From Bacilli bacterium (GTDB lineage: Bacteria > Bacillota_I > Bacilli_A > RF39 > UBA660), in assembly GCA_017553685.1 (NCBI GenBank), contig JAFZKH010000002.1, forward strand, positions 44,141-108,140: a stretch of 64,000 nt of DNA, written 5' to 3'. This document shows, piece after piece, positions 1-61,112 of the stretch. A model generated the notes under the pieces. The model searched no databases and was not told the origin of the DNA. It saw only the letters and a list, made by a program, of their open reading frames with translations. A program made the position numbers and the translations under genes. Numbering within the stretch: the first letter of the stretch is position 1; the number at the start of each line of letters is the position of its first letter.

Positions 1-1374
1 TTAGTTAAAGAATATGGATTTACTTTTGAACAAGCTGATGCAATAGTTAAATTACAATTATATAGATTAACTAATACTGATGTTGCTATATTAAAAGAAG
101 AACTAGAAAAATTAAAAGCATTTATAGAAGAATTAGAAGCACTTCTTTCTGATGAAAAGAAGTTAATGAAACAAATTAAGAAGGAATTAACTGAAGTTAA
201 GAAAGAATATGCTGTTGAAAGAAAAACCGAAATAGTAGATGAAATAACAGAAATTAAGATAGACCAAGATGCATTAATTGTTAAAGAAGATGTAATGGTT
301 GTAGTAACTAAAGAAGGTTATGTAAAGAGAACTTCTTTAAGAAGTTATTCTGCTTCTGAAGGCGAAGACCTTGCATTAAAAGAAAATGATTATGTAATTG
401 GTATGTATGAAATGAATACTAAAGATACATTACTTGTATTTACTGATCTTGGTAATTTCTTATCAATACCTGTTCATATGCTTCCAGATTTAAAATGGAA
501 AGAAATGGGTAAACATATTAGTAATGTTATTACTATTAAAGATGAAGAAAAAGTTATTACATCTATGCCAATATATGATTTTGAAAAGAAAGAATATATT
601 ACATTATTCTCTAAGAATGGTATGACTAAGAGAACTAACCTAATAGATTACAAAGTACTAAGTAGAAGACCAGTACAATGTATGAAATTAAAGGGTGATG
701 ATAAAGTTGTTAGTGTTATCAAGAAAAATGAAAACAATGTATTTGTATGTACATCTGATAACTATGGACTTATTTATCATTTAAATGAAATACCTGTAGT
801 AGGATTAAAAGCTTCTGGTGTTAAATCTATTAAACTAGGTAAAGATAAAGTAGTATCTGCAGAAATATATGATGATGCAGAATACATAACTCTGTTTACA
901 GACTCGTCCGCTAAGAGGATTAAACTAGAAGAACTTGAAGTAAGTGCTAGGGCAAGGAGAGGATCTCTTCTAATAAGATTAATTAAGACAAATCCTCAAA
1001 ATGTAATTAAAGCATTTATTACAGATACTAAAGATAAGTTTGGTGTTCTAAATATTAAAGAAATATTTGAACTTAAGAATAGTGAAATAAAACTTGCAGA
1101 TAGACATGCTGCTGCAGGAACTATTTCAAAACAAAGAATTCAAGATATATTTAGAATTGCTGAAATAGAAAAAGATACAAAATCTATTCCAAAAGAAATA
1201 GAAGAATTAGAAGAAGATACAATTGAAGAATTAGAATTATTTACTGAAGAAGAAGCACCTAAAGTTGAAGTAGTAAAACCTAAAAAAGAGGCTCCAAAGA
1301 AGGAAGTTTCACTTCAAGAAATAGATGATGAAATTTTAACAATTGACGATTTTCTTAACGACTTTAAGATTTAG
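1..1374 (+). CDS. DNA topoisomerase IV / gyrase subunit A, C-terminal portion (5' partial; C-terminal beta-pinwheel domain plus acidic/Lys-rich tail)
   Basis: Frame 1 is open from base 1 and joins the listed 166..1374 ORF. The repeated motif 'VVxTKEGYVKRTSL...' is typical of GyrA/ParC C-terminal-domain blades, and the tail is acidic and KE-rich. Confidence 0.7.
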   Translation, partial: LVKEYGFTFEQADAIVKLQLYRLTNTDVAILKEELEKLKAFIEELEALLSDEKKLMKQIKKELTEVKKEYAVERKTEIVDEITEIKIDQDALIVKEDVMVVVTKEGYVKRTSLRSYSASEGEDLALKENDYVIGMYEMNTKDTLLVFTDLGNFLSIPVHMLPDLKWKEMGKHISNVITIKDEEKVITSMPIYDFEKKEYITLFSKNGMTKRTNLIDYKVLSRRPVQCMKLKGDDKVVSVIKKNENNVFVCTSDNYGLIYHLNEIPVVGLKASGVKSIKLGKDKVVSAEIYDDAEYITLFTDSSAKRIKLEELEVSARARRGSLLIRLIKTNPQNVIKAFITDTKDKFGVLNIKEIFELKNSEIKLADRHAAAGTISKQRIQDIFRIAEIEKDTKSIPKEIEELEEDTIEELELFTEEEAPKVEVVKPKKEAPKKEVSLQEIDDEILTIDDFLNDFKI

Positions 1375-1435
1375 ACATCTTGAAAAAAAGTCAAAAATAT
1401 GCTATAATATTTTTTAGTAAAGGAGAAAAGAAAAT

Positions 1436-1993
1436 ATGTGGTGGATTATTGCAATCGTTGCAGTTGTAGTACTATTAGTACTATGGTTTATTGGAGTAGC
1501 AAATAAGCTAGTTAGAAAGAAAGCTGAAGTTGATAATGCTTTTGCAGATATCGATGTATATCTAACTAAGAGATTTGATTTAATTCCAAATTTAGTTAAC
1601 ACTATTAAGGGTTATACTAAACATGAAAAGGAAACTTTTGAAGCTGTTGTTGAAGCTAGAAACAAAGGTTTAGGAGCTCAAACTATTAATGAAAAGGTTG
1701 AAGCTGATGAACAAATGAGTTCTGCTTTAGGAAGATTATTAGCTATTTCAGAAAGTTATCCTGAATTAAAAGCTGATACAAGCTTTATTAAATTACAAGA
1801 ATCATTAAATGAAATTGAAACTGAATTAGTAGGAGCTAGAAGATACTTCAATGCTACTGTTAAAGCTTATAACATTCTAATTCATACAATTCCAAGTAAT
1901 ATTGTTGCTGGTATCTTAGGATATAAGGATATTAAATTGTATGAAGCTTCTGAAGAACAAAGAAAGAATGTTACTGTAGATTTTTCAGAATAA
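1436..1993 (+). CDS. LemA family protein
   Basis: N-terminal TM helix, then FADIDVYLTKRFDLIPNLV...EARNK, a typical LemA signature. It sits directly before a DUF2207 gene, the usual pairing. Confidence 0.8.
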   Translation: MWWIIAIVAVVVLLVLWFIGVANKLVRKKAEVDNAFADIDVYLTKRFDLIPNLVNTIKGYTKHEKETFEAVVEARNKGLGAQTINEKVEADEQMSSALGRLLAISESYPELKADTSFIKLQESLNEIETELVGARRYFNATVKAYNILIHTIPSNIVAGILGYKDIKLYEASEEQRKNVTVDFSE

Positions 1994-2009
1994 TAGAAAG
2001 GAAAATGAT

Positions 2010-3785
2010 ATGAAAAAGAAATTAATATTTGTTTTTATATCATTTTTTCTTTTGGTATTTCCATTTAGCGTAAATGCTACAACTGATGGTTTTACCATTA
2101 CAAAATATGATGTAAAAATAATAGTAAATGAAAATAATACCTTAGATGTTACAGAAACTATTACAGCAGTTTTTGATCAATATGGAAAACATGGTATTAA
2201 AAGAGCTTTACCTACACATTCTACTTATAGAAGAAAAGTTGATGGTAGAGAAGTAGATATTAAACAAAAAGTTAAATATAAAAATATATCTATTAATGAA
2301 GACTATACAACAGAAACTGGTGACGGATATAAAACATTAAAGATTGGTAAATCATATAAGACATTAGATATTAATCAACCATATACATATATCATTAAGT
2401 ATACTTATGATACTGGTGATGATATGATTGATGAGTATGATGATTTATACTTCAATCTTATTGGTACTGAATGGACTGCTAAAATAGAAGAAGCAACATT
2501 TACTATAGTTATGCCTAAAGAATTTGCGACTAGTAATGAAAAAGGTTCTTTAATAAACTTTTCTACTGGTTATTATGGAAATGCTTATAATAAAGGTGTT
2601 AATTATAAAGTAGATGGAAAAATGATTACTGGTTTTATAGAAGAAAAATATGATGGGGTAGCACTTAATGAAAGAGAAGGTTTAACTGTTAGAATTGAAC
2701 TTCCTAATGGTTACTTTGTTGGTGCTAGAAAACATTATGATTTAACTCCTGTAATATTAGTAGGAACTATTCTAATACTTATTCTTATGATGCTAGGTGG
2801 ACTTGCATTATTTGTGAAATTTGGTCTTAGAAAGAAGAAAACAATGGTTGTTAGATATACTGCTCCTGATGGAGTAGATCCAGCATTAGCAGGTTTCTTA
2901 TATAAAGGTATTCCTGAATCAAATGATATAGTTGCATTAATAACTTATTTAGCTACTAAAGGTTATCTAAAGATAATTGATGATAAGGGTAGTAAATTTA
3001 AATTACAATTCTTAAAACCATTAGATGAAAGTGAACCAAACTATATTAAAACTACATTTAAAGGATTATTTAAGAAAGCAGATGAAGATGGTATAGTAAC
3101 TAAGAAAGATTTAACAAATAAATTCTATACATCACTTAATACTGCATTATCACAACTAGGTAAAACATATATTATTTATGCTAAGAGTCATGATAGAGTT
3201 ATAGCTTATAATATATTTATGGCTATCATATCATTCTGTTTTATATTAATACCTGTATCTGATGCATTATCATATAAAGTACATACTGTTTATGCTCCTT
3301 TATATGCTATATTCTGGGTATTAATACCAACAAATATAATACTTCAATTAGTATTAAGTATATGTACTAGAAAAAGAACTGATGAAGCAGAAAAGCTATA
3401 TGCTGATGTAGCAGGATATAGAGAATTTATAGATAAAGTAGATGTTAATAAGATTAATACTTTAGTAGAAGAAGATCCTCAATTATTCTATAATGTTTTA
3501 CCATATGCATATGTATTTGGTTTAACTAATAAATGGATTAAGAAGTTTGAATCTATTAAATTAGAACCTCCAACTTGGTATGAAGGTAATATTTATGATA
3601 TTCATACTGGAGCATTTAGACTTCAAAGTTTAACTTCAGGATTAGATTCTATTACTGCATCTGCTAAAACAACAATGTCTAGTAGACCATACGAATCATC
3701 AGGTGGATCTGGTGGCTTCGGTGGAGGCGGAGGCGGTGGCTTCTCCGGTGGAGGAGGAGGCGGCGGCGGTGGCTCAAGCTGGTAA
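2010..3785 (+). CDS. DUF2207 domain membrane protein with Gly-rich C-terminal tail
   Basis: Signal peptide, two TM segments, and a C-terminal GGSGGFGGGGGG tail, as in DUF2207 proteins found next to lemA. Confidence 0.7.
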   Translation: MKKKLIFVFISFFLLVFPFSVNATTDGFTITKYDVKIIVNENNTLDVTETITAVFDQYGKHGIKRALPTHSTYRRKVDGREVDIKQKVKYKNISINEDYTTETGDGYKTLKIGKSYKTLDINQPYTYIIKYTYDTGDDMIDEYDDLYFNLIGTEWTAKIEEATFTIVMPKEFATSNEKGSLINFSTGYYGNAYNKGVNYKVDGKMITGFIEEKYDGVALNEREGLTVRIELPNGYFVGARKHYDLTPVILVGTILILILMMLGGLALFVKFGLRKKKTMVVRYTAPDGVDPALAGFLYKGIPESNDIVALITYLATKGYLKIIDDKGSKFKLQFLKPLDESEPNYIKTTFKGLFKKADEDGIVTKKDLTNKFYTSLNTALSQLGKTYIIYAKSHDRVIAYNIFMAIISFCFILIPVSDALSYKVHTVYAPLYAIFWVLIPTNIILQLVLSICTRKRTDEAEKLYADVAGYREFIDKVDVNKINTLVEEDPQLFYNVLPYAYVFGLTNKWIKKFESIKLEPPTWYEGNIYDIHTGAFRLQSLTSGLDSITASAKTTMSSRPYESSGGSGGFGGGGGGGFSGGGGGGGGGSSW

Positions 3786-4826: not shown

Positions 4827-5495
4827 ATGGCAACAAATAAAAAAGAAAAAATAGATTATGTTGAAAAAAATAGAAAGAAATATTTTTATAGATTTGTTAA
4901 AAGATCATTTGATATTTTCTGTTCTATACTAGGAATGTTATTAGTACTACCAGTAGCATTAGTTACTAAGATTTGTTATTTATGTACTAAAGATACTAAA
5001 TCAATCTTTTATAAACAAAAAAGAATTGGTAAGTATGGAAAAATTATATATATTTATAAGTTTAGAAGTATGGTTTATAATGCTGATGAAGTATTAAAAG
5101 AATTATTAAAAGATCCAAAATATAAAAAAGAATGGGATAAGAATCAAAAGATTAATGATGATCCGAGAATTACTAAGATAGGTGGATTCCTTAGAAAGAC
5201 TTCTTTAGATGAATTACCACAATTCATTAATGTATTTATAGGAGATATGTCTTTAATAGGACCAAGACCTTTAGTAGAAGGAGAATTAGATGCTCATCAT
5301 GGAGATCATAAATTATATGAATCTGTTAGACCAGGTATATCTGGTTGGTGGGCTGCTAATGGAAGAAGTGCAACAGATTATGTTGAAAGACTAGAACTAG
5401 AAAACTATTATTGCAAAAATTGTAGTATCTGGTTAGATATTAAATGTATATTTAGAACAATAAAAGCAGTAATATTTAGAAGTGGAGCAAAATAG
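4827..5495 (+). CDS. Priming sugar-phosphate transferase (bacterial sugar transferase family, WbaP/CpsE C-terminal type)
   Basis: One TM helix, then KFRSM...DELPQF...GDMSLIGPRP, the PF02397 signature. Confidence 0.85.
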   Translation: MATNKKEKIDYVEKNRKKYFYRFVKRSFDIFCSILGMLLVLPVALVTKICYLCTKDTKSIFYKQKRIGKYGKIIYIYKFRSMVYNADEVLKELLKDPKYKKEWDKNQKINDDPRITKIGGFLRKTSLDELPQFINVFIGDMSLIGPRPLVEGELDAHHGDHKLYESVRPGISGWWAANGRSATDYVERLELENYYCKNCSIWLDIKCIFRTIKAVIFRSGAK

Positions 5496-5518
5496 ACTTA
5501 AATAGTCTATTTTTTTTT
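5493..5518 (+). terminator. Rho-independent terminator overlapping the stop codon
   Basis: TAGACTTAAATAGTCTA hairpin followed by T9. Confidence 0.5.
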
Positions 5519-5778: not shown

Positions 5779-6717
5779 ATGGAAAATGAAATAATTATTT
5801 TTGAAAATCAAAATATTAAATTAGAAGTTAATATGAAGGATGAGACTGTGTGGTTATCTTTAGATCAAATGTCACAATTATTTGGAAGAGATAAGTCTGT
5901 TATTTCTAGGCATATTAAGAATGCATTAGACGAGGAACTTAATAAATCAGTTATTGCAAAATTTGCAACAACTGCAGGAGATGGTAAAACATATCAAGTT
6001 GAATATTATAACTTAGATATGATTATATCTGTTGGTTATAGGGTAAAATCTAAAGAAGGTATAGTATTTAGAAGATGGGCTACTAGTGTATTAAAAGACT
6101 ATATGCTTAAGGGATATGCTGCTAATGAACAAAGACTAAAGTATTTAGAGAAGACAGTTCAGTTAATTGATATAGCAGGAAGAATAGAAGAAGAGCTTCA
6201 TGGAACTGAGGCACAAGATATTATTAAAGTGATTAATAATTATTCTAATGCTTTAAATCTATTAGATGATTATGATCATAGATCATTATCTAAACCTAAA
6301 GGAACAGTATCAGATGATATGATTACATACGATAATTGTTTAAATGTAATAGGATTACTTAGATTTAATAATGATAGTGATATATTTGCATTAGAAAGAA
6401 ATAAGGGATTAAAGTCTATTATTGCTAATATTTATCAAACATTTGGTGGTAAAGATGTTTATCCGACAATTGAAGAAAAGGCTGCTAATTTCTTATATCT
6501 AATTATTAAGAATCATACATTTATAGATGGTAATAAAAGAATAGCTGCTACATTATTTATTTACTTTTTAGAGTATTATAATATTCTTTACAAGAATGAA
6601 AAAAGAGTATTAGATAATAATACTTTAGTAGCTTTAACTCTTTTAATAGCAGAGTCTAATCCTAAAGAAAAAAGTATATTAATTGATTTGGTAATGAACT
6701 TTTTAATAGACAAGTAA
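5779..6717 (+). CDS. RhuM-family N-terminal domain fused to a Fic/DOC (death-on-curing) domain
   Basis: The N-terminal half matches the RhuM virulence-protein family (VGYRVKSKEGIVFRRWATSVLKDY). The C-terminal half carries the Fic/Doc core (HTFIDGNKRIAATLFIYFL). Confidence 0.75.
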   Translation: MENEIIIFENQNIKLEVNMKDETVWLSLDQMSQLFGRDKSVISRHIKNALDEELNKSVIAKFATTAGDGKTYQVEYYNLDMIISVGYRVKSKEGIVFRRWATSVLKDYMLKGYAANEQRLKYLEKTVQLIDIAGRIEEELHGTEAQDIIKVINNYSNALNLLDDYDHRSLSKPKGTVSDDMITYDNCLNVIGLLRFNNDSDIFALERNKGLKSIIANIYQTFGGKDVYPTIEEKAANFLYLIIKNHTFIDGNKRIAATLFIYFLEYYNILYKNEKRVLDNNTLVALTLLIAESNPKEKSILIDLVMNFLIDK

Positions 6718-7855: not shown

Positions 7856-9919
7856 ATGAAAAAGAAATTTTCTGAAAATAAAAATAAAATTATTGATAGT
7901 ATTAAGAATTTTAGTTTTAAGAAATTATTACATCAGATATTACACTTTATTAAATATAATAGAGTTTTTTTATCGTATGTAATACTTTCTTTAATTAGTT
8001 GTAAATTACTAAGATTATTTACTATAGAAGATGGTATTAATATTAAAGCATTTTTATTTGATTTATCAATTATATTATTACTTGGTAGTTTAGGTTATTT
8101 CTTTAAACCTAAGAATCAATTTAAATATTGGTTACTATTATTAATACTATATACATTTATAAATACAGTAAATGGTATGTATTATTTATTCTTTACATCA
8201 TTTGCATCATTCTCATTATTAGAAACATTTGCACAAACATTTACTGTTAGTGATTCTGTAGTAGCTAAATTATCTTATAAGACATTTGTATATTTATTTA
8301 TTTTAATTATTTATATAGTTCATAGAGAAATACTTAGAAAGAAAAGATATTATTTCACTGTGGAAAAAGTAGAGAAAAGAAAGAAAATATTACCTGCTGT
8401 ATTAATAACAGGTGCTGCTATATTAGTTATTAGTGTTTGTATGCTTAATAAAACAGATTTATCTAGACTTAGAAAGCAATGGAACAGAGAATACATAGTT
8501 GAACGATATGGAGTACTTGTATATCAAGGAAATGATTTAGCACAAACTATTAAAACTAAATTAGATGCTACTTTTGGTAAAGATAAAGCAGCAGAAGAAT
8601 TTATTAATTATTATAATAACAATACTAATCCAAAGAGTAATAATGAATATACTAATAAACTTGAAGGTTATAATGTAATTATTATTCACTTAGAAAGTAT
8701 GATGCAGTTTTTAGTAGGTTTAGAAATAAATGGACAAGAAGTAACACCAAACTTAAATAAGTTAACAAGAGAATCAATGTATTTTGATAATTTCTATTCA
8801 CAAGTAAGTGTAGGTACTTCATCAGATGCAGAGTTTACTTTAAATACAAGTTTATTACCAGCTCAATCAGGTACAGTAGCAGTTTCTTACTATAATAGAA
8901 ACTATGTTTCTTTAGAAAAACTATTAAATGAAAAAGGATATTATACATTCTCTATGCATGGTAATAAAGCTAGTATGTGGAATAGAGCTAACTTACATGA
9001 TTCACTTGGTTATGAAAGATTCTATAGTCAAGATGATTATGAAATAGATGAAGTAATAGGACTTGGTTTATCTGATAAATCATTTTTTAGACAATCTGAA
9101 GTTAAACTAGGAGAAATCAAAGAAATGGTTGATTCATCAGATAAATATAATAACTATATGGGTACTATACTTATGCTTTCTAATCATACACCATTTGAAG
9201 ATCCATATTATCTTGAAGGAGAAGATACCTTTGATGTTAGATATCATACAGGACAATATGATGAAGAAGGTAATGAAATCATTTATGATTATTTATTAGA
9301 TGAAAATGTAAAAACTATTGGTAGATATATAAGAAGTGTTCACTATGCTGATGAAGCACTAGGAGAATTCATGGAATATGTTAATACCCATGATGAATTT
9401 AATAAGACAGTATTTGTTATGTATGGAGATCATGCAGCACAAATAGGTAAATCAGAGTTTGCAGCATATAATAACTTTGATCCAGAAACAGGAGAGTTCT
9501 TAGATAAAACTAGTGAAAACTATAATAACTATGATTATTATTCAAATGAAGTATTTAAGAAAGTTCCATTCTTAATATATACTAAAGATGGATCTATTAA
9601 ACCAAATACATATTCTTATCCTATGGGTATGATAGATGTATTCCCAACTATTGGAAATATGCTTGGTATTTATAATCAATATGCTTTAGGAAAAGATATC
9701 TTTGAAATAAAAGATGATAATACAGTAGTGTTCCCTAATGGAAACTTCTTAACAAAAGATGTATATTATTATGCAACATCAGATAATTATAAGATATTAG
9801 ATCCTGATGCACAATTAAGTTCTGATTATGTAGAAGAACATAAATTATACTCAGAAGGTATTATTAAAGAATCAAATGATTTAATACTTTATAACTTAAT
9901 AGAATATACAAAGGAATAA
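7856..9919 (+). CDS. LTA-synthase-family (LtaS-like) sulfatase / phosphoglycerol transferase, polytopic N-terminus plus extracellular catalytic domain
   Basis: Five N-terminal TM helices, then a sulfatase domain (NVIIIHLESM...TPNLNKL...FYSQVSVGTSSDAEF). Confidence 0.75.
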   Translation: MKKKFSENKNKIIDSIKNFSFKKLLHQILHFIKYNRVFLSYVILSLISCKLLRLFTIEDGINIKAFLFDLSIILLLGSLGYFFKPKNQFKYWLLLLILYTFINTVNGMYYLFFTSFASFSLLETFAQTFTVSDSVVAKLSYKTFVYLFILIIYIVHREILRKKRYYFTVEKVEKRKKILPAVLITGAAILVISVCMLNKTDLSRLRKQWNREYIVERYGVLVYQGNDLAQTIKTKLDATFGKDKAAEEFINYYNNNTNPKSNNEYTNKLEGYNVIIIHLESMMQFLVGLEINGQEVTPNLNKLTRESMYFDNFYSQVSVGTSSDAEFTLNTSLLPAQSGTVAVSYYNRNYVSLEKLLNEKGYYTFSMHGNKASMWNRANLHDSLGYERFYSQDDYEIDEVIGLGLSDKSFFRQSEVKLGEIKEMVDSSDKYNNYMGTILMLSNHTPFEDPYYLEGEDTFDVRYHTGQYDEEGNEIIYDYLLDENVKTIGRYIRSVHYADEALGEFMEYVNTHDEFNKTVFVMYGDHAAQIGKSEFAAYNNFDPETGEFLDKTSENYNNYDYYSNEVFKKVPFLIYTKDGSIKPNTYSYPMGMIDVFPTIGNMLGIYNQYALGKDIFEIKDDNTVVFPNGNFLTKDVYYYATSDNYKILDPDAQLSSDYVEEHKLYSEGIIKESNDLILYNLIEYTKE

Positions 9920-9941: not shown

Positions 9942-9953
9942 TTCCCATATGTT

Positions 9954-9981
9954 TGACTTAAAAAGCCATATAATATATAAT
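9954..9981 (+). promoter_or_regulatory. Promoter TTGACT-N16-TATAAT
   Basis: Consensus-like hexamers, suggesting a new transcription unit begins here. Confidence 0.45.
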
Positions 9982-10018
9982 TATATATATACATAATATG
10001 TCAGGAGGATGGATTAAA

Positions 10019-10807
10019 ATGAAAAAAATTACAGTAATAATTGCTACTCATAAAGAGTATCAAATGCCAAAGGATAATTTGTATTTACCTGTTCAAGTAG
10101 GTGCTGAAGGAAAGAAAGATTTAGGTTACACAAGAGACAATACAGGAGATAATATATCTACAAAGAATCCTTTTTTTTGTGAACTAACTGGTTTATATTG
10201 GGCTTGGAAAAATTTAGATTATGATTATTTAGGACTTGCTCATTATAGAAGACATTTTGGTTTAAAGAAAAAGAAATATAAGAAAATAGAAGATACATTA
10301 GATCATGTATTAACTAGAAAAGAAGCAAAAGAATTATTAAAAGATTGTGATGTAATACTTCCAAAGAAAAGAAAGTATTATATTGAAAACTTATATCATC
10401 ATTATAAAAGTACTATGCATGTAGAAACTTTAGATGAAACAAGAAAGATTTTAGAAGAAAAATATCCAGAGTATTTACCTGAATTTGATAAACTTCATAA
10501 GAGAACTTCAATGCATGCATTTAATATGTTTATTATGAAGAAAGAAATATTAGATGGATATTGTACTTGGTTATTTGATAATTTATTTGAATTAGAGAAA
10601 AGAATAGATACTTCTAAGTATGATGCATTCCATGCTAGATTCTATGGAAGAATCTCAGAAAGACTTCTTGATGTATATTTAAATACAAATGGTATAAAAT
10701 ATAAAGAAATACCATTTATAGAAATAGAACATATAAATTGGATAAAGAAAGGATTTAGTTTCTTATTAGCTAAATTTTTTGGTAAGAAATATGGGAAAAG
10801 CTTCTAA
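10019..10807 (+). CDS. DUF4422-family glycosyltransferase
   Basis: IATHKEY...ELTGLYWAWKN...GLAHYRR motifs. The ATG at 10019 is preferred because the AGGAGG SD lies inside the listed 9998 start. Confidence 0.7.
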   Translation: MKKITVIIATHKEYQMPKDNLYLPVQVGAEGKKDLGYTRDNTGDNISTKNPFFCELTGLYWAWKNLDYDYLGLAHYRRHFGLKKKKYKKIEDTLDHVLTRKEAKELLKDCDVILPKKRKYYIENLYHHYKSTMHVETLDETRKILEEKYPEYLPEFDKLHKRTSMHAFNMFIMKKEILDGYCTWLFDNLFELEKRIDTSKYDAFHARFYGRISERLLDVYLNTNGIKYKEIPFIEIEHINWIKKGFSFLLAKFFGKKYGKSF

Positions 10808-11792
10808 AAAAAGCCCACTAATCTCCATAATAATACCTGTTTACAAAGTAGAAGAATTTTTAGATAGATGTGTTAAGAGTGTTACTAAACAAACATACAA
10901 ACATCTAGAAATAATACTCGTGGACGATGGATCTCCTGATAATTGTCCAAAGATGTGTGATGATTGGGCTAAGAAAGATAAAAGAATAAGAGTAATTCAC
11001 AAAAAGAATGGTGGATTATCTGATGCTAGAAATGCTGGTATTAGAGTAGCTAAAGGTGACTATATTGGTTTTATTGACTCAGATGACTGGATTGATAAAA
11101 AAATGTATGAAGTATTATATAAGAATATAGTTAAATATGATGCTGATATATCTTGTTGTGAATTATATAAGGGTTCTAGTAATCCTACTGAAAAAGAATT
11201 AAAAGAATACGATAATAAAGTTAAAACATATAATCAAGAAGAATATATGAAAATATTTTTTAAGATTGGAACTCAACAATGTGTGTATTATGCAGTTACT
11301 AAACTATATAGAAGAGAATTGTTAGAGGATAACTTATATCCTGTAGGATTAACTTCTGAGGATGTTGTTGGAACATGCAAAGTACTTTTTAAATGTAATA
11401 AAATAGTATCTGTTAATTATCCATATTACATTTACTATAAGAATGACAAGAGTATTACAGGTAGTAAGTTTTCAAATAATGACTTTCATTTATTAGAAAT
11501 ATGGGATAAAGTAGTAGATCTATGTAAAGATACTGAGTATGAGGATATGGCTACATTAAATAGAGAAAGAATAGATTATACTTTATTAATGAGAATGGCT
11601 GTTCAGTTATCTAATAAAGAAATAAATGAAAAATATGGTGATTATAAAAAAGAATTACTTGAAAGACTTAAAAAGAACAAGAAAAGATTATTAAAGTCAC
11701 CAATACCAACATCTAGAAAGATAACTCTTAGATTATTACTTTTAAATTATAGATTATTTGTTAGTACATGCAAATTATATTTAAAGAGGTAA
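10791..11792 (+). CDS. Family 2 glycosyltransferase
   Basis: ISIIIPVYKVEEFL...VDDGSPD...DSDDW, the GT2 DxD signature. Confidence 0.8.
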   Translation: MGKASKKSPLISIIIPVYKVEEFLDRCVKSVTKQTYKHLEIILVDDGSPDNCPKMCDDWAKKDKRIRVIHKKNGGLSDARNAGIRVAKGDYIGFIDSDDWIDKKMYEVLYKNIVKYDADISCCELYKGSSNPTEKELKEYDNKVKTYNQEEYMKIFFKIGTQQCVYYAVTKLYRRELLEDNLYPVGLTSEDVVGTCKVLFKCNKIVSVNYPYYIYYKNDKSITGSKFSNNDFHLLEIWDKVVDLCKDTEYEDMATLNRERIDYTLLMRMAVQLSNKEINEKYGDYKKELLERLKKNKKRLLKSPIPTSRKITLRLLLLNYRLFVSTCKLYLKR

Positions 11793-11796
11793 GCAT

Positions 11797-12984
11797 ATGA
11801 AGAATAAAAAGAATTTGATATGGATTATTTTATTTACTTTTATGCTAATGGTTTACTTTGAACCACAAATGTTTAAAGAAAATGCTTTTGATGGAGTAGA
11901 AACAGTAGATTTTGTATATAAAGTTCTAAAACTATTATCGTTTGGATTTGTATCTGTTCTATATCTAAAAGAAAATAAATTTAGAATATCTAATTTGTTA
12001 TTAGCAATTGGTGTTTTACAAGCAATTATGCTTTTATCAACAATTCTATATAAGGGTGATATATCTAGATTTGCTGGTCCTGCAATTACTACTGTAACAA
12101 TGTGTATGATTGCAGAACTATTAATAAAAAAGAAATTGTTATTTCAAGTTTTAGAAATAGTTAATTACTATTTCTTAATTTGCTTTATTTTGAATGTTAT
12201 ATCAATTTATCTAATTGATTATACTTTCTTTTGTTCATACACAAAAGTATATTTTTTAGGTATAGATAATAGATTTATATTTACATTTATTCCATGGATT
12301 TTATTTGAAGGGTTAGTTAGTTTATACAAAAAAGATACTATCGGAATAAGATGGAGAATAGTATTTTGTTTATGTGAATTAACATTAATATATACTTTCT
12401 CAGCAAGTGCAATGTTAGTATTATTTATATATGCACTTATGATGTTTAATTATAATTTTAAGATAAGACTTGATAAATTAATATTTGCAGGTTATCTAGG
12501 AGCTAATATAGCAATAGTAATATTTAAGATTCAAAAGATCTTTAAACCACTTATTGTTTTAATTGGAAAAGATATAACTTTTGCTGGTAGAACTTATTTA
12601 TGGGATGGAATAATAAAACAATTTCCAAAATATCCTTTAATCGGAAGAGGAATGCAATCTGTTAAATATGATAAAACATTTTTCTTTAATACATCTGGTG
12701 CATATCATTTAGAGTGTTGTAGAGTTATACATGCTCATAATTCACTTATGACTTTATTATATAGAGGTGGATTATTATCAGTATTTATTTATCTTGGAAT
12801 TATATATGCTTCACTAAAAAGTATATATGATAATTATTTAAACAAGTACGCAAAAATATTATTAGTATCATTATTAGCAATTCTAGCAACATCTATATTT
12901 GACACAATGGATTTTGCAGGATTATATTTTATAATTGCTTTAATAATTAATATAAGCCTTATAGAAGTAAAAAAAAACACATAA
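11797..12984 (+). CDS. Wzy-type polymerase / O-antigen-ligase-domain membrane protein
   Basis: About 10 TM helices and the HAHNSLMTLLYRGGLLS motif of the Wzy_C / O-antigen ligase domain. Confidence 0.7.
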   Translation: MKNKKNLIWIILFTFMLMVYFEPQMFKENAFDGVETVDFVYKVLKLLSFGFVSVLYLKENKFRISNLLLAIGVLQAIMLLSTILYKGDISRFAGPAITTVTMCMIAELLIKKKLLFQVLEIVNYYFLICFILNVISIYLIDYTFFCSYTKVYFLGIDNRFIFTFIPWILFEGLVSLYKKDTIGIRWRIVFCLCELTLIYTFSASAMLVLFIYALMMFNYNFKIRLDKLIFAGYLGANIAIVIFKIQKIFKPLIVLIGKDITFAGRTYLWDGIIKQFPKYPLIGRGMQSVKYDKTFFFNTSGAYHLECCRVIHAHNSLMTLLYRGGLLSVFIYLGIIYASLKSIYDNYLNKYAKILLVSLLAILATSIFDTMDFAGLYFIIALIINISLIEVKKNT

Positions 12985-13004
12985 TTAAATGGAGGTGAGA
13001 GAAA

Positions 13005-14189
13005 ATGATAAAAACATTAAAATATATCGTTAGAAGTATTGAAATTTACTTTAGATATTTTTTAAGTATTATTTTTAGAATTTTCCCTATTAATCCAAAA
13101 AAAATAGTTGTTTGTTCATACTTTGGAAATGATTATGGTGATGGAGCAAAATATATTATTGATGAATTATTAGATGATGATAAATATACAATAGTATGGG
13201 CATTAAAAAAGAATTTAATGAAAAATAATCATTTACCTAAGAATGTAAAACCTGTGAAGTATAATTCTTTAGCAATGCTTTTTGAATTATCTACTGCTAA
13301 AATCTGGATAGATAATGCAAGAAAAGTTATATTTCCATTAAAAAGGAAAAATCAGTTTTATTTTCAAATATGGCATGGGCCAATATCATTTAAAACAATT
13401 GAGTTAGATACACAGGAAACTTTAACAAAAATATATATTAAAAAATTATTAATTGACAATAAAAATATAGATTATATGGTATCAGGTTCTAAATGGACAA
13501 ATGAAAAATGTAGAAGTGCATTTGGATATACAGGTAAAATAATGGAATGTGGAAATCCAAGAAATGATATTTTATTTCAATCTGATTCATATAAAGAAAT
13601 TAATAAAAAAGTGCATTCTTTTTTTAACATTCCTGACAACAAGAAGATTATTCTATATGCCCCAACATTTAGAAATAGTAGAGAGATTGATATTTATCAA
13701 TGGGATTACAACTTGATTATGAACAATTTTTGTAAAAAGTTTAAAGAAGACTATGTTTTCTTAGTTAGACTTCATCCAAATATTGTTGATCAAGCTGAAA
13801 AAATGAATAATTATGGTGGAAACATTTTAAATGCAACCATTTATCCTGATATGCAAGAGTTATTAATTGCTTCTGATATATTAATCACTGATTATTCTTC
13901 TTCAATGTTTGATTTTGGAATGATTAATAAGAAATGCTTTTTATATGCTCCTGATGTTGATGATTATTTAAAAGAAAGACATTTTTATTTTGATATAAGA
14001 AAACTACCTTTTTCTTTATCTCAAAATATTGATGACTTTGTTAAGAATATTTCTTCATTTGATAGCAAAGATTATCAAAAAAAATTGGATACATTTTATA
14101 AGAAGATTGGAATCTTTGAAACAGGACATTCATCTGAAAGTATAGCAAATAGAATTAAGGAGATTTGTGATAAAAATGAAAAAAAATAA
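13005..14189 (+). CDS. CDP-glycerol glycerophosphotransferase (TagF/TagB family)
   Basis: ILYAPTFR...VRLHPN...ITDYSS, the Glyphos_transf (PF04464) signature. Confidence 0.85.
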   Translation: MIKTLKYIVRSIEIYFRYFLSIIFRIFPINPKKIVVCSYFGNDYGDGAKYIIDELLDDDKYTIVWALKKNLMKNNHLPKNVKPVKYNSLAMLFELSTAKIWIDNARKVIFPLKRKNQFYFQIWHGPISFKTIELDTQETLTKIYIKKLLIDNKNIDYMVSGSKWTNEKCRSAFGYTGKIMECGNPRNDILFQSDSYKEINKKVHSFFNIPDNKKIILYAPTFRNSREIDIYQWDYNLIMNNFCKKFKEDYVFLVRLHPNIVDQAEKMNNYGGNILNATIYPDMQELLIASDILITDYSSSMFDFGMINKKCFLYAPDVDDYLKERHFYFDIRKLPFSLSQNIDDFVKNISSFDSKDYQKKLDTFYKKIGIFETGHSSESIANRIKEICDKNEKK

Positions 14190-15405
14190 ATTATTACAAA
14201 ACACAATTTTTTTATACATTTTGACATTTAGTTCTTATTTTTTTAATTTTATATCTGTTCCATATTTAACTAGAGTATTAGGGCCATCTCTATTTGGTAA
14301 AGTTGGTTTAGCAATAGCTATTTCAACATATTTTAAATTATTATTTGATTTTGGCTTTATATTATCCGCTACAGAAGAGGTATCAAATAATCGTGAAGAT
14401 AAAAAAAGAATTTCAAAAATACTTACATCTGTTAATATTTTAAAAATATTATTAATAGTAGTAGGTTTAATAGTTTTTGTTTTAATGATAGTTTTCTTTC
14501 CATCATTAAGAAAGTATAAGTTATTATATTTCCTATATTTTGTATATGTAGCTATAGATTGCTTCCAACCAGATTTTGTATATCGTGGTATAGAAGAAAT
14601 GAAAATAATTACAATAAGAAATGTTTGTATAAAAGCATTTTTTACTGCATTAATATTCATTCTATTAAAAGATAAAAGTCAATATATGTTAATTCCTGTA
14701 TTTAATATATGTGGTTCATTCTTTTCTTTAATTGCAGTTTATATACATGTTATAAAAAAATTGAAAATCAATTTTATAAAAGTTACAAAAGAAGAGGTAA
14801 AAGAAAGATTTAATAGTAGTAAAATATTCTTTTTATCAAGAATAGCTACAACAATATATGGAGCTACTAATACATTTATTCTAGGTATTATATATCCTAC
14901 AGGTAATACACTTGGTTATTATACATCATCTGATAAAATACTTCAGGCAGGAAGATCAATGATGTCTCCAATATCAGATAGTGTATATCCATATATGGTT
15001 AAGAATAAAGATTTTAAATTAATTAAAAAAATATTGATTACATTAATGCCAATTATAACTGTATTTGGTGTTGTAGGATTTATATTTGCTAAGAAAATAT
15101 GTATTATAGCATTTGGTTCTGAATATGCTGGATCTGCTATTGTATTAAGATATATGATTCCACTTATTTGGATGACATTACCAAGTTATATTTTAGGTTT
15201 TCCAACAATGACTCCGTTAGGATTAAAGAAAGAAGCAAATAATTCAGTTATTATTGGATCAATATATCAAATTGTTGGTATAGGAATTCTATATTTATTA
15301 AGAGTATTAAATCTACATAGTATTTGTATTTTAACAATTACTACAGAACTACTAATACTATTATTAAGAATATTCTATATTGTAAAGAATAGAAATAAGA
15401 AATAG
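14176..15405 (+). CDS. Wzx-type oligosaccharide flippase (polysaccharide biosynthesis protein family)
   Basis: Twelve predicted TM helices, and an N-terminus (NTIFLYILTFSSYFFNFISVPYLTRVLG) typical of Wzx. An alternative GTG start lies at 14167. Confidence 0.75.
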   Translation: MKKNKLLQNTIFLYILTFSSYFFNFISVPYLTRVLGPSLFGKVGLAIAISTYFKLLFDFGFILSATEEVSNNREDKKRISKILTSVNILKILLIVVGLIVFVLMIVFFPSLRKYKLLYFLYFVYVAIDCFQPDFVYRGIEEMKIITIRNVCIKAFFTALIFILLKDKSQYMLIPVFNICGSFFSLIAVYIHVIKKLKINFIKVTKEEVKERFNSSKIFFLSRIATTIYGATNTFILGIIYPTGNTLGYYTSSDKILQAGRSMMSPISDSVYPYMVKNKDFKLIKKILITLMPIITVFGVVGFIFAKKICIIAFGSEYAGSAIVLRYMIPLIWMTLPSYILGFPTMTPLGLKKEANNSVIIGSIYQIVGIGILYLLRVLNLHSICILTITTELLILLLRIFYIVKNRNKK

Positions 15406-15419
15406 TGCAGGGAGGTTTT

Positions 15420-15824
15420 ATGAAGAAAATATTAACATATGGTACATTTGATTTATTGCATATAGGTCATATTGAAATATTGAGAAGAGCAAAAGAACTA
15501 GGAGATTATTTAGTTGTAGCTGTTTCTACAGATGAGTTTAATGCAATAAAAGGTAAAAAAGCATATTATAGTTATGAAGATAGAAAGAAAATTCTTGAAG
15601 CTATTAAATATGTTGATTTAGTTATTCCTGAGGAAAAATGGGAACAAAAAAGAGATGACGTTATTAAATATGGAATCGATACAGTAGTTATGGGTTCAGA
15701 TTGGGAAGGCAATGAAAACTTTGAATGTTTAAGAGATATTTGTAATGTTGTTTATTTACCACGTACTGAGGGTATTTCTACAACAATGATTAAGAATGAT
15801 TTAGGTGATAAAAAACTAAAATAA
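15420..15824 (+). CDS. tagD: Glycerol-3-phosphate cytidylyltransferase
   Basis: YGTFDLLHIGHIEILRRAKELGDYLVVAVSTDEFN is near-identical to the TagD/Gct family. Confidence 0.9.
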   Translation: MKKILTYGTFDLLHIGHIEILRRAKELGDYLVVAVSTDEFNAIKGKKAYYSYEDRKKILEAIKYVDLVIPEEKWEQKRDDVIKYGIDTVVMGSDWEGNENFECLRDICNVVYLPRTEGISTTMIKNDLGDKKLK

Positions 15825-15836
15825 AGGTATTAATAA

Positions 15837-16850
15837 ATGAAAAGTAAAGAAAGAATAGAATATTTGGATATTGCAAAAGGTATAGCAATTTTACTAATAA
15901 TTATGGGACATATGAGTCTTAAACATGTGAATTCAGTTGTATTTACATTTCATGTACCAATATTCTTTATTATTAGTGGATACTTTTTTACTAAAAAATA
16001 CAATTATAAAGAGTTATTGAGTAAATTATTTAAGACATTAATTGTTCCTTATTTGGTAACTTGCTTACTAATAATAATATTTATGTTTTGTAGAAAAATG
16101 ATATCGGGGGGGGTCAATAGTTTATTATTCTCCCAAATATATAATCAAATATTAGCTTCATTATATGGTAGTGGTCTTACAAGTTATTATTTCCACATAT
16201 GGCCTATAGGAGCCATTTGGTTTTTATTATCATTATTTTGGTCAAAAATAATATTCAATTTTTTAATAGATAAAAAATATAAATACATATATATAATTTT
16301 AATATTTATTCTTGGTATTATTAGTAAAAAAATAATTTGGTTACCATTTAGTATCCAACCAGGAATGACATGCTTATTATTTTTATATATTGGTTATTTA
16401 GCTAGAAGATTAGATTTATTTAGAATATTTAAGATATGGCATTTATTAGTATTCTTTCTTACAACAGTATTGGTTATATTAGTTAATTTCAAGCTGTATA
16501 GATGGGGATGTATGAGTTTAGTATCAAATAGTTTTACTAATATTCCACTTAATATATTAGGTGCTATATCAGGAAGTTTCTTTACAATAACTATTTCAAA
16601 ATATTTATCTAAATCAAAAATAATATTAAAAGTATTATCTTTCTTTGGAAAACATTCATTAATTGTATTATGTTTTCATTTATTAGAAATGAAAACTATT
16701 CCTTTTTTAGATTTAGCAGGATTAATTACAAGTAATTATTATTTAAAATATTCTATTTTATTTTTAATAAAAATTATATGGGCTTCGCTATGTATTCTTG
16801 TAGTAAAGAAAATACCTATATTTAGAAGATTATTTTCTTTAAAATCATAG
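15837..16850 (+). CDS. Membrane O-acyltransferase (acyltransferase 3 family)
   Basis: N-terminus IEYLDIAKGIAILLIIMGHM and 10 TM helices. Contains the G8 tract listed below. Confidence 0.8.
   Translation: MKSKERIEYLDIAKGIAILLIIMGHMSLKHVNSVVFTFHVPIFFIISGYFFTKKYNYKELLSKLFKTLIVPYLVTCLLIIIFMFCRKMISGGVNSLLFSQIYNQILASLYGSGLTSYYFHIWPIGAIWFLLSLFWSKIIFNFLIDKKYKYIYIILIFILGIISKKIIWLPFSIQPGMTCLLFLYIGYLARRLDLFRIFKIWHLLVFFLTTVLVILVNFKLYRWGCMSLVSNSFTNIPLNILGAISGSFFTITISKYLSKSKIILKVLSFFGKHSLIVLCFHLLEMKTIPFLDLAGLITSNYYLKYSILFLIKIIWASLCILVVKKIPIFRRLFSLKS
16106..16113 (+). repeat. Poly-G (G8) homopolymeric tract inside the acyltransferase CDS
   Basis: The sequence reads atatcGGGGGGGGtcaat directly. No other G or C run longer than 5 occurs elsewhere in the window. 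Confidence 0.9.
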
Positions 16851-16870: not shown

Positions 16871-16899
16871 TTGACTTGTAATATTGAAAAGTATATAAT
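16871..16899 (+). promoter_or_regulatory. Strong sigma-A promoter TTGACT-N17-TATAAT
   Basis: Perfect -10 and near-perfect -35 hexamers with 17-nt spacing. Confidence 0.6.
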
Positions 16900-24197: not shown

Positions 24198-24251
24198 TTG
24201 CTATCTTTACATAGATTTGAATATATTATAAAATTTATATAGGTGAATCGT

Positions 24252-25331
24252 ATGGGTAAAGATATTAGTAGTAATAAAGAAAAAACAATTATTTATAGTT
24301 TTTATGCAATTAGATTTTTGTTTTTTGCTTTTATATTTATTCATCATACTGCAAAACTAGTTAGAATACCTATAATAGACCAATCTGGTTTGGCTGTATC
24401 AGGTTTTCTAATAATGAGTGGATTCTTATGTGGATATCTTTATATAAATAAATACAATAAAATAAAAATTAAAGAAATGTTTGAATTTACTTTTAAAAGA
24501 TTTAAAAAATTCTATCCACTACATGTATTAACTTTAATTTTATCAATAGGTTTATTTGGTTATTTTAATATATCAACAATGCCAGCATTGTTTGATTTTA
24601 TAAAAAAGTTTTTGACAAATCTATTTCTAGTACAAAGTTGGATACATAATATGGATTATTACTACTCATTTAATGGAGTTGTATGGTTTTTAAGCTCATA
24701 TTTATTTTTAACTTTTCTAACAATTCCAATATTAAGGTTAGTGACATATATTAATAAAAAGAAGCATTCAAATATATATTGTATTTTACTAATCATAGTA
24801 ATGTTTATTATGCATATGTTATGGTCGTATTTCATTGTAAAAAACAATCATGATCAAAGATATTGGCTTTATGTATTTCCACCTTCTAGAATATTTGAAT
24901 ATGTAATTGGAATTCTTCTTGGAAATCTAGTTGTAAAGTTGAATCATAATTATAAAAATGAAAAGTCTATATTTACTATACTTGAAGTTTTATCAATCAT
25001 TATAGTATGTGCTTTTTGCTTTTTAGTTTCTGATTCATCATTTTTAACAATTTGGTCTTCTAAATGGGTTATTCCATTAATATTCTTTATAGGAATTTTT
25101 GGATTTCAAAAAGGATATATTAGTAAGTTTATTAGTTTAAAACCATTTGTTACATTGGGATCAGCATCTATGGTTATGTTTATAATTCATCAAGTTGTTG
25201 TAACATATGTATTATTTATTAATAGAAATCCTGCACATAAAAGACTTATGGCACTATATATGTTTATAGTAACTATAATTATTAGTTTATTAATTGAACG
25301 TTTAAGAAATAATAAAAACCATCAAAATTGA
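24252..25331 (+). CDS. Membrane O-acyltransferase (acyltransferase 3 family), second copy
   Basis: FYAIRFLFFAFIFIHH plus polytopic topology. AGGTGA SD lies 6 nt before the ATG at 24252; the listed start at 24243 is GTG. Confidence 0.75.
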   Translation: MGKDISSNKEKTIIYSFYAIRFLFFAFIFIHHTAKLVRIPIIDQSGLAVSGFLIMSGFLCGYLYINKYNKIKIKEMFEFTFKRFKKFYPLHVLTLILSIGLFGYFNISTMPALFDFIKKFLTNLFLVQSWIHNMDYYYSFNGVVWFLSSYLFLTFLTIPILRLVTYINKKKHSNIYCILLIIVMFIMHMLWSYFIVKNNHDQRYWLYVFPPSRIFEYVIGILLGNLVVKLNHNYKNEKSIFTILEVLSIIIVCAFCFLVSDSSFLTIWSSKWVIPLIFFIGIFGFQKGYISKFISLKPFVTLGSASMVMFIIHQVVVTYVLFINRNPAHKRLMALYMFIVTIIISLLIERLRNNKNHQN

Positions 25332-31170: not shown

Positions 31171-31248
31171 TGTAAAATTTTAAAAAACTTAACCCATTTA
31201 CTTAGATATATGATATTATAGTATATGTATGATAAAGGTGGTTGTAAG

Positions 31249-31956
31249 ATGAAAAAATTAGATAAAATTATTTTATTTTCTGTATTCTTTTTATTAGTAG
31301 CTATTATAGTATTAATGGTTGTTATGTTAGTTCAAAAAGGTAGAATTTATTTAGGTAGAAATATCGTATATGAAAATGTAGTAGAAGAGAAAAAACTTAT
31401 TAGTGAAAATATAGTATTTTTAGGAGACTCTATTACTGAATTCTATGACTTAGATAAATATTATGATGATTATTATCATGTACAAAGTGGTCATAGTGGA
31501 GATAAAACATATCAAATACTAGATAATATGTATGAAAGAGTATATAGATATAATCCATCAAAAGTATTTATTATGCTTGGTATTAATAACTTAGTATATG
31601 ATGGAGCATCAGCAGAAGAAGTAACTAATGATATTAAAGAAATATGTGAAAAAATAAAAGATAGAAATAAATATACAGAAATTTATATAGAATCTATTTC
31701 TCCATATTCTAATGTATGGAAAAATGAACATGATAATAATGCTAGATCTGCTGAAGAAGTTAATCCTAAAGTAGTAGAAGCTAATAAAATACTTAAAAAG
31801 TATGCTAAAGATAATAATTATACTTATATAGATATATATGATGAACTTGCTAATGAAGAAGGTATATTTGATTCTAAATATACTGATGATGGTCTACATC
31901 CTAATGATGAAGGATATAAACATATAACAGAAAAATTAACTAAATATATGAAATAA
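31249..31956 (+). CDS. SGNH/GDSL hydrolase (probable carbohydrate esterase)
   Basis: Signal anchor, a GDSITE block and the DDGLHPN catalytic DxxH motif. Confidence 0.8.
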   Translation: MKKLDKIILFSVFFLLVAIIVLMVVMLVQKGRIYLGRNIVYENVVEEKKLISENIVFLGDSITEFYDLDKYYDDYYHVQSGHSGDKTYQILDNMYERVYRYNPSKVFIMLGINNLVYDGASAEEVTNDIKEICEKIKDRNKYTEIYIESISPYSNVWKNEHDNNARSAEEVNPKVVEANKILKKYAKDNNYTYIDIYDELANEEGIFDSKYTDDGLHPNDEGYKHITEKLTKYMK

Positions 31957-32507: not shown

Positions 32508-32517
32508 TGAGGTTAAT

Positions 32518-41912: not shown

Positions 41913-41972
41913 ATGTTATAATTTTATTAGTATTGATAATAAAAATAGGGTATCAATTTGGAGGTATTTGTT

Positions 41973-61094: not shown

Positions 61095-61112
61095 AATACT
61101 TTTTTTTTATGC
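61086..61112 (+). terminator. Rho-independent terminator
   Basis: AAAGTATTT-AAA-ATACTTT followed by T9. Confidence 0.55.

Follow-up and report, generated by a model that had tools for sequence, protein, structure and literature searches.

A run of eight G nucleotides lies inside a predicted membrane O-acyltransferase gene, in a cell-envelope glycan region of a bacterium with AT-rich DNA. Its presence raises the question of whether the gene is turned on and off by slippage at the run, or whether the run is without function. The initial annotation of this DNA had proposed a slipped-strand ON/OFF switch. The proposal is supported here by four independent lines of evidence, namely by a contig with nine G nucleotides, by the rarity of the G-ending codons in the tract, and by comparable tracts both in homologs of the gene and in relatives of the host. 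The whole stretch of DNA that was analyzed, 64,000 nucleotides in length, is called the window in what follows.

The host organism

The window is chromosomal DNA, with a GC content of 25.8%. Its genes include the 3′ part of gyrA, tRNA-Gln, rlmN, a PASTA kinase and a PP2C phosphatase, rsgA, rpe, dnaB/dnaI-like genes and thrS. A search of the window against Rfam found the tRNA-Gln only. The threonyl-tRNA synthetase (ThrS) does not exceed 89% identity with that of any GTDB species representative, and its best matches are in metagenome-assembled genomes (MAGs) from sheep rumen and other herbivore guts, labelled 'Bacilli bacterium', 'Erysipelotrichaceae', 'Tenericutes' or 'Mycoplasma sp. CAG:877'. 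The host is an uncultured member of the Bacilli with a reduced genome, probably living in the ruminant gut.

Position of the tract and its reading frames

The G8 tract is present in the acyltransferase-3 gene as had been claimed (Table 1), in the context AAAATGATATCGGGGGGGGTCAATAG. Counted from the ATG, the tract falls in the codons TCG GGG GGG GTC, for Ser90-Gly91-Gly92-Val93 of the 337-residue product, the same residues as those named in the initial annotation. Its statement that the other G or C runs of the window do not exceed 5 nt is upheld by a window-wide homopolymer scan, which finds two G5 runs and one C5 run. Runs of A and T in the same scan reach 9 nt.

Computation of the frames gives a product of 94 residues with G9 and of 105 residues with G7. 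A change by a single G does truncate the enzyme, as had been expected; the earlier length of about 92 residues is only approximate. The acyltransferase is kept in frame by tract lengths of G5, G8 and G11. This is the anatomy of a contingency locus, with a slippable repeat inside an open reading frame (ORF) and with a changed product for G7 and G9.

Table 1. Features of the acyltransferase gene and of the proposed operon (window coordinates)
Feature	Position	Strand	Basis
Consensus-like promoter TTGACT-17-TATAAT, before the seven-gene block	9953..9981	+	11/12 matches; consensus match only
DUF4422 glycosyltransferase, first gene of the proposed operon	9998-10807	+	Pfam
GT2 glycosyltransferase, second gene of the proposed operon	10779-11792	+	Pfam
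Wzy-type polymerase or O-antigen-ligase-like membrane protein	11797..12984	+	Pfam Wzy_C, E 8e-10
TagF/TarF-like CDP-glycerol glycerophosphotransferase	13005..14189	+	PF04464, E 3e-77; NCBIfam TarF match below cut-off
Wzx-type flippase (Polysacc_synt)	14167..15405	+	PF01943, E 2e-39
Glycerol-3-phosphate cytidylyltransferase (TagD-like), predicted to make CDP-glycerol	15420..15824	+	NCBIfam TIGR01518 equivalog, 184 bits vs 165; Pfam CTP_transf_like
Predicted membrane O-acyltransferase, Acyl_transf_3 only, 337 aa, without a fused SGNH domain	15837..16850	+	Pfam PF01757
G8 homopolymer, proposed slippage site (G8 ON, G9/G7 OFF)	16106..16113	+	Sequence, frames, G9 allele in contig L006, codon rarity
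Consensus-like promoter TTGACT-17-TATAAT, in the 99-nt gap 3′ of the acyltransferase gene	16871..16899	+	Consensus match

The acyltransferase

The match of the protein to PF01757 has an E value of 1.3e-22 and a score of 80.8 bits (gathering score 31), with residues 8-320 aligned to positions 2-320 of the 326 in the profile. In a full-length alignment of 25 sequences (the window gene, its two paralogs in the window and 22 homologs), His25, Phe43, Gly48, Trp128-Phe129-Leu130 and Gly271 are invariant. The FFxISG and GAxWFL motifs, as well as the N-terminal His of the first transmembrane segment, are common to the homologs. The profile score and the conserved residues place the predicted enzyme in the Acyl_transf_3 family, where a conserved His of the His25 type presumably has a catalytic role. 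A simple hydropathy scan finds approximately 8-9 hydrophobic segments, compared to the roughly 10 helices of the family.

The tract is located in a poorly conserved loop directly after the third hydrophobic segment, as judged from the alignment and the hydropathy scan. Many homologs have a single Gly in this loop, and none of those in the aligned set has Gly-Gly. As the loop is variable among the homologs, insertions of Gly are probably tolerated there. The residues from Trp128 onward are encoded 3′ of the tract and are missing from the stubs of 94 and 105 residues. The loss of these conserved residues in the G7 and G9 products indicates that G8 is the ON length.

An identical protein is present in the NCBI collection (MBR4830298.1, 'acyltransferase family protein [Bacilli bacterium]'), and it comes from a MAG. 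No homologs above 42% identity were found in the protein database searched, and no close relatives of the acyltransferase were found in the GTDB species genomes.

The glycan region and the proposed operon

The cell-envelope glycan region extends from approximately 4.8 to 33.6 kb of the window. It contains two Wzx/Wzy sets, many glycosyltransferases, Glf, an LCP ligase, and three acyltransferase-3 (AT3) paralogs. The acyltransferase gene is the last of seven genes (9998-16850) that share an orientation and are tightly packed, and the TagD-like gene is immediately 5′ of it in the same proposed operon. The product of this operon would be a wall polysaccharide with glycerol-phosphate, made by the Wzx/Wzy pathway and decorated by the acyltransferase. 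Only the operon neighbors (TagD-like, TagF-like, Wzx, Wzy and the glycosyltransferases) point to the substrate of the acyltransferase.

The position of the second consensus-like promoter, directly after the acyltransferase gene, suggests that this gene is the last one in its transcription unit, and a frameshift in it would then not be polar on the genes downstream. No terminator was detected after the acyltransferase gene. The sole hairpin-like match (16199-16216) is located inside the ORF and is weak, with five pairs. No further plausible microsatellite in coding sequence of the glycan locus was revealed by Tandem Repeats Finder.

Chance expectation and codon usage

The initial annotation had assumed approximately 13% G and had arrived at about 0.005 G8 runs per 64 kb by chance. 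The + strand actually contains 15.9% G, and composition alone gives an expectation of 0.022 (independent bases) to 0.039 (first-order Markov) runs of at least eight G per window, so that both earlier values were too low. When synonymous codons are shuffled with the proteins and the codon usage of the window kept, the expectation is 0.004 G or C runs of at least 8 nt per window (12 in 3000 shuffles).

The codons of the tract are rare in this DNA. Among the 19,139 codons of the 42 + strand ORFs of the window, GGG accounts for 17 of the 1103 Gly codons (1.5%), TCG for 15 of the 1255 Ser codons (1.2%), and GTC for 9 of the 1270 Val codons (0.7%). Only one of the 81 Gly-Gly dipeptides is encoded by GGGGGG, and it is that of the tract itself. 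The tract requires G at three consecutive synonymous third positions, where G-ending codons make up approximately 1-1.5% of the usage. Because such codons are rare and the host is AT-rich, drift should have erased the tract without any change to the protein. The tract would therefore be either very young or being maintained. The rarity of GGG and TCG and the shuffle expectation of 0.004 support maintenance of the repeat by selection, against the codon and mutational bias.

A window-level probability of 0.004-0.04 is in itself unremarkable across a whole genome. For a genome with an assumed size of 1.5-2 Mb, approximately 0.1 such runs are predicted by the codon-aware null and about one G8 by composition alone. 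Codon usage provides a much stronger argument than base composition, and the case rests on the context of the tract and on a variant allele. Taken together, the G8 tract is very unlikely to be due to chance.

Tract length in other contigs of the organism

Contigs of the same organism were retrieved by exact-protein look-ups of the acyltransferase and its two neighbors, from ENA (ERZ27256923, ERZ28019155 and ERZ28653833) and Logan (SRR12529227 and SRR12529255). Over 0.9-11 kb across the acyltransferase locus, the eight contigs compared (L001-L008) show 100% identity to the window; the exception is L006. This 912-bp scaffold (ERZ28653833, SAMN15830049) differs from the window only in having G9, and the 94-residue product is called on it. 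In the exact look-up of products, that of G8 is found on 6 contigs and that of G9 on one. Overall, there is one G9 contig, which is short and Illumina-derived, against approximately 11 G8 contigs.

The products predicted for G5, G6, G7, G10 and G11 are absent from the sequence collection by exact look-up, and the 161-residue C-terminal ORF expected on frameshifted contigs has no record in the look-up. None of the samples is known to have both tract alleles. A scan of JGI metagenomes, with a pattern of the exact flanks and any tract length, gave 0 hits. Contig breaks at approximately 16324-16348 in two Logan assemblies were considered as a sign of heterogeneity and were rejected as artefacts; L005 ends in an Illumina adapter.

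That the lone difference falls in the eight bases predicted to be unstable is suggestive of a contingency locus. The same eight bases are also where Illumina and assembly errors concentrate, and the G9 could be a technical error. The run would in that case be functionless and the acyltransferase constitutively intact. This explanation draws on the fact that a single, short contig of approximately 12 is discordant, and that composition predicts about one G8 in a genome of the assumed size. G-tracts are error-prone on Illumina and in databases, and Penno et al. have cautioned that both sequencing and annotation can be at fault in such tracts (PMC9187656). Assembly artefacts do exist among the contigs, as seen from the adapter at the end of L005 and from L101, which ends in G12. 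However, a functionless run is at odds with the codon-aware null of 0.004 per window, and it leaves the three successive G-ending synonymous sites, each with a usage of about 1%, unexplained. Further evidence on this point comes from the homologs of the gene (see below).

Poly-G tracts in relatives of the host

In 80 related MAGs, a total of 430 kb around thrS was scanned. It contains five G runs of at least 8 nt, all of them just 3′ of thrS and in or adjoining surface-related genes, and they represent three contexts. In the first (L018), G9 lies in the spacer of a TTGACT...TATAAT promoter before a gene for a DUF6273 surface protein. In the second, G9 (L062) or G8 (L069) is found upstream of a type-IV-pilin-like protein. 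In the third (L024/L025), G10 occupies codons 14-17 of a gene for 239 residues, the protein cluster of which also includes G7 and other variants. The clade of the host, as sampled in these sequences, places poly-G tracts at surface-related genes.

Within the host itself, no second long G or C tract is present in approximately 72 kb (the window together with L169); the latter, 8.5 kb further upstream, has no G or C run of 6 nt or longer. For an extension in the other direction, an exact look-up of ThrS found no record. In the absence of a second tract there, a genome-wide 'phasome' is not supported.

Poly-G tracts in homologous acyltransferases

A profile-guided scan of metagenome contigs identified 80 loci with homologs of the acyltransferase, at 30-40% identity. 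Six of them have a G run of at least 8 nt within the acyltransferase gene, at three different positions. The difference in position between homologs indicates that the tracts arose independently.

The Bifidobacterium longum homolog (WP_118214290.1) has a G9 tract and an intact ORF in three loci (L138, L141 and L163). In a fourth (L166), with the same site and flanks, the tract is G8 and the ORF is split into 276 and 96 residues. Among B. longum contigs, the in-frame G9 sequence ('...LLGGGLSKLGQ') is found on 292, G8 on 61, G7 on 18, and G11 on 2. In Faecalibacterium prausnitzii (L095), an out-of-frame G8 product of 150 residues (WP_217296226.1) occurs on 430 contigs; the other alleles are G10 (12 contigs), G11 (6 contigs) and the in-frame G9 (a few contigs). 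The third case (L144, GC 37%) has G8 and G11 alleles, both of which are out of frame. Polymorphic tracts recur, then, in the same gene class of other taxa.

After de-duplication, 3 of 44 lineages have a tract of at least G8 in the acyltransferase (48.7 kb in total), compared to 2 tracts in 340 kb of flanking sequence. This corresponds to an enrichment of approximately 10-fold in the acyltransferase genes, with P ~0.003 from a Poisson calculation made by hand from the counts. G-tract switching appears to have arisen repeatedly in the AT3 family of Gram-positive gut bacteria.

At the L144 locus, two further G-tracts were observed in a Caps_synth glycosyltransferase gene, which is split, and in a hexapeptide acetyltransferase gene.

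These homologs bear on the two main alternatives to a switch. The Gram-positive gut bacteria above carry alleles of the same kind in isolate-derived NCBI proteins and on hundreds of contigs, and their tracts are approximately 10-fold enriched in this gene family over the flanks; both observations speak against a functionless run with a homopolymer error in the G9 contig. We consider that explanation unlikely.

The second alternative takes the G9 allele as real. The tract would be a true mutational hot-spot and not a reversible switch, and G9 would represent a one-way loss, an incipient pseudogene in an organism for which the acylation is dispensable. The dominance of the out-of-frame G8 in F. 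prausnitzii (430 contigs, against few in frame) can be read as such decay, and pneumococcal wcjE has been lost through irreversible mutations (PMC4432689). However, decay leaves the G at three synonymous sites of an AT-rich genome unexplained. The range of alleles from G7 to G11 that share a backbone in B. longum and in F. prausnitzii, some of them in frame, fits slippage back and forth better. Moreover, neither the window gene nor the G9 contig has secondary disabling mutations. A one-way loss is therefore judged to be quite unlikely.

Proposed mechanism

We regard it as fairly probable that the tract is a slipped-strand contingency locus, which switches the O-acylation of a wall polysaccharide containing glycerol-phosphate and is ON with G8 and OFF with G7 or G9. 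The polymerase would slip occasionally on the G run during replication. With G8, the membrane acyltransferase of 337 residues would be in frame. With G9 or G7, the frame would shift just after the third transmembrane segment, and the resulting stub (94 or 105 residues) would lack over 70% of the protein, and with it the conserved Trp128-Phe-Leu and Gly271 regions. Switching would add or remove the O-acyl (probably O-acetyl) decoration and leave the remainder of the polymer unaffected. Acylated and non-acylated cells would be held together in a clonal population, and such a mixture may be a bet-hedge against phages, antibodies and lectins that recognize either the decorated or the bare glycan.

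Of the properties expected of a phase-variable gene, the anatomy and the codon anomaly are apparent in this sequence, and the observed length variation is thin. The high rate and the reversibility of switching are putative, as are the substrate, the selective agent and the structure of the operon. The phenotype would comprise O-acylation, antigenicity and the phage receptor. G8 is at the short end of the fast-switching tracts in species with mismatch repair, which counts against a switch.

Programmed ribosomal frameshifting or transcriptional slippage, by which one allele would give both a short and a long protein, is highly improbable, since the full-length protein supported by all homologs is already read in frame with G8: homopolymers can make RNA polymerase slip, and the +1 and −1 frames do stop shortly after the tract, but transcriptional slippage is documented mainly on A/T runs of at least 9 nt, the short products have no recognizable function, and no downstream stimulatory structure was seen, the weak five-pair match at 16199-16216 being the only hairpin-like site.

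Implications

Should the switch exist, the decoration of the wall polysaccharide would be diversified stochastically in an uncultured member of the Bacilli with a small genome, from the ruminant gut. Phage adsorption, recognition by host antibodies and lectins, and strain persistence would be affected, and metagenome-assembled genomes would show one arbitrary phase only.

The wider pattern in the Gram-positive gut bacteria is a more interesting lead than the window tract itself. No description of polymorphic G-tracts in stand-alone AT3 acyltransferases of F. prausnitzii, B. longum or other gut Gram-positives was found in the literature searched. That poly-G contingency tracts in stand-alone AT3 genes are convergent and widespread among Gram-positive gut commensals is a tentative proposal, plausible but short of probable. 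If it is true, the O-acylation of surface glycans in the gut microbiome would be routinely heterogeneous within clones, and these tracts would constitute a layer of phase variation of their own, different from the invertible promoters found in Bacteroides. This layer would have gone mostly unnoticed, since copies with a frameshift are entered in annotations as fragments or pseudogenes, and many annotations of a 'truncated acyltransferase' would likely be OFF phases and not dead genes. With their polymorphic tracts, which are spread over hundreds of public assemblies, F. prausnitzii and B. longum offer cultured, tractable species for direct tests of phase variation in the glycan O-acylation of beneficial gut bacteria.

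Comparison with known systems

The wciZ gene of Streptococcus pneumoniae (serotype 15B/15C switch) is similar to the window gene in being an O-acetyltransferase gene of a Wzx/Wzy capsule locus in a low-GC Gram-positive bacterium. In place of a G homopolymer, wciZ has a (TA)n dinucleotide repeat. According to PMC4432689 (citing van Selm 2003), wciZ is switched ON and OFF reversibly by slipped-strand mispairing, which changes only the O-acetyl decoration and antibody recognition. In contrast to the host of the window, the pneumococcus is a cultured pathogen for which reversibility and serology have been demonstrated.

Intragenic G-tracts frameshift surface-glycan enzymes in Neisseria, in glycan acetylase and glycosyltransferase genes (PMC9187656). 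The capsule and lipooligosaccharide (LOS) genes of Campylobacter jejuni are frameshifted by intragenic poly-G in the same manner (PMC8355987 and PMC8224891, the latter of which includes the switching of phage receptors). Unlike the host, Neisseria and C. jejuni are Gram-negative pathogens; their genomes each contain many tracts, and the rates have been measured. In the host, one tract was seen in approximately 72 kb.

The sortase-pilus genes of Bifidobacterium breve come from a Gram-positive gut commensal, and an intragenic G-tract sets the frame of a surface gene there as well (PMC9187656). These tracts are turned ON and OFF by replication slippage, and the in-frame length is enriched in vivo (PMC9187656). 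Unlike the window gene, their target is a pilin, the genome is high in GC, and the tracts are G10-G12.

Staphylococcus aureus icaC and Listeria monocytogenes inlA resemble the host system in that repeat slippage inactivates a surface-related gene of a low-GC Gram-positive. IcaC, a membrane protein, is believed to O-succinylate PIA (PMC4432689), and the poly(A) tract of inlA varies approximately 1000 times faster than by point mutation (PMC2831843). The repeats differ from the G8 of the window, being TTTA in icaC and A7 in inlA, and the target in inlA is a protein adhesin. With wciZ and icaC (PMC4432689) and inlA (PMC2831843) as precedents, the remark in the initial annotation that documentation of such switching is much scarcer for low-GC Gram-positives is a fair one. 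The mechanism itself is already known, and the window tract adds an instance to it that is ordinary in kind.

Homopolymers and paralogs in the window

The tract-bearing acyltransferase has two Acyl_transf_3 paralogs in the same envelope region, which share 23-25% identity with it, and no homopolymer tract is present in either one. The paralog at 32488-33615 is located near a GDSL/SGNH esterase-like gene. Two long ORFs of the window probably encode giant surface proteins, and neither of them contains a long G/C tract.

The longest A run of the window (A9) is located in the final few codons of a Wzy-like gene, where slippage would alter the C-terminal tail of the protein and nothing else. Two T9 runs are intergenic, and the one at 61100-61108 looks like the tail of the thrS terminator. 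The RhuM/Fic-domain gene, flanked by a priming phosphoglycosyl transferase gene and an epimerase gene, is an odd passenger of a polysaccharide locus.

Coordinates of homopolymer tracts and associated genes in the window and in the loci compared with it.
Locus	Position	Feature	Remarks
Window	4827-5495	Priming phosphoglycosyl transferase	
Window	5510-5518	T9	
Window	5779-6717	RhuM/Fic-domain gene	Start of glycan region
Window	11797-12984	Wzy-like gene	
Window	12969-12977	A9	
Window	24243-25331	Acyl_transf_3 paralog	Envelope region
Window	31225-31956	GDSL/SGNH esterase-like gene	
Window	32488-33615	Acyl_transf_3 paralog	Envelope region
Window	41958-54701	ORF	4247 aa
Window	61100-61108	T9	
Window	61158->64000	ORF	Starts after thrS; N-terminal membrane anchor; continues past window end
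L018	3807-3815	G run after thrS	
L024	3917-3926	G run after thrS	
L025	3905-3914	G run after thrS	
L062	2178-2186	G run after thrS	
L069	3902-3909	G run after thrS	
L144	426-434	Poly-G tract	
L144	3801-3808	Poly-G tract	
L144	6709-6716	Poly-G tract	
L095	652-660	F. prausnitzii AT3 tract	G9; near codon 128
L138	4904	B. longum AT3 tract	
L141	6793	B. longum AT3 tract	
L163	3968-3976	B. longum AT3 tract	G9
L166	6793-6800	B. longum AT3 tract	G8

Tracts in related Bacilli

A relative of the host with 94.8% identity to window positions 1237-3550 is present in an unrelated sequencing project (L172, DRR858656), so there are sister strains or species. Among related uncultured Bacilli (430 kb), all of the G runs of at least 8 nt are positioned directly downstream of thrS, in three contexts. 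The run lies within the promoter spacer ahead of a DUF6273 surface protein in the first, and upstream of a type-IV-pilin-like protein in the second, with G9 in one species versus G8 in another. In the third, it lies within codons 14-17 of a gene for a 239-aa protein, which has no Pfam match and whose cluster includes G7 and shifted-start variants.

Two public contigs end in assembly artefacts. The terminus of the host-locus contig L005 (1644-1667) is Illumina adapter sequence (AGATCGGAAGAGC...), and that of L101 is a G12 run (8771-8782) typical of no-signal G calls. As these two ends indicate, G runs at contig termini are to be distrusted.

Tracts in homologous acyltransferases

Three poly-G tracts are present in the capsule-type locus L144 (JGI Ga0129310_1001746), which has a GC content of 37%. 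The AT3 homolog and a Caps_synth glycosyltransferase are each split by one of them, and the remaining tract is in frame within a hexapeptide acetyltransferase, close to its 3' end.

For the AT3 gene of Faecalibacterium prausnitzii, 430 contigs have the frameshifted G8 form (150 aa, WP_217296226.1), the in-frame G9 form is rare, and the longer G10 and G11 alleles are found in 12 and 6 contigs, respectively. The GC content of this locus is only 41%, which is below the usual value for F. prausnitzii and hints at a glycan locus gained horizontally.

The AT3 acyltransferase of Bifidobacterium longum (WP_118214290.1) has its G-tract near codon 265, and its gene adjoins that of a 'surface protein A' with cell-wall-binding repeats. 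In public assemblies, the tract is present as in-frame G9 (292 contigs), G8 (61), G7 (18) and G11 (2). The gene appears to be a phase-variable one not described before, in a species that is both cultured and probiotic.
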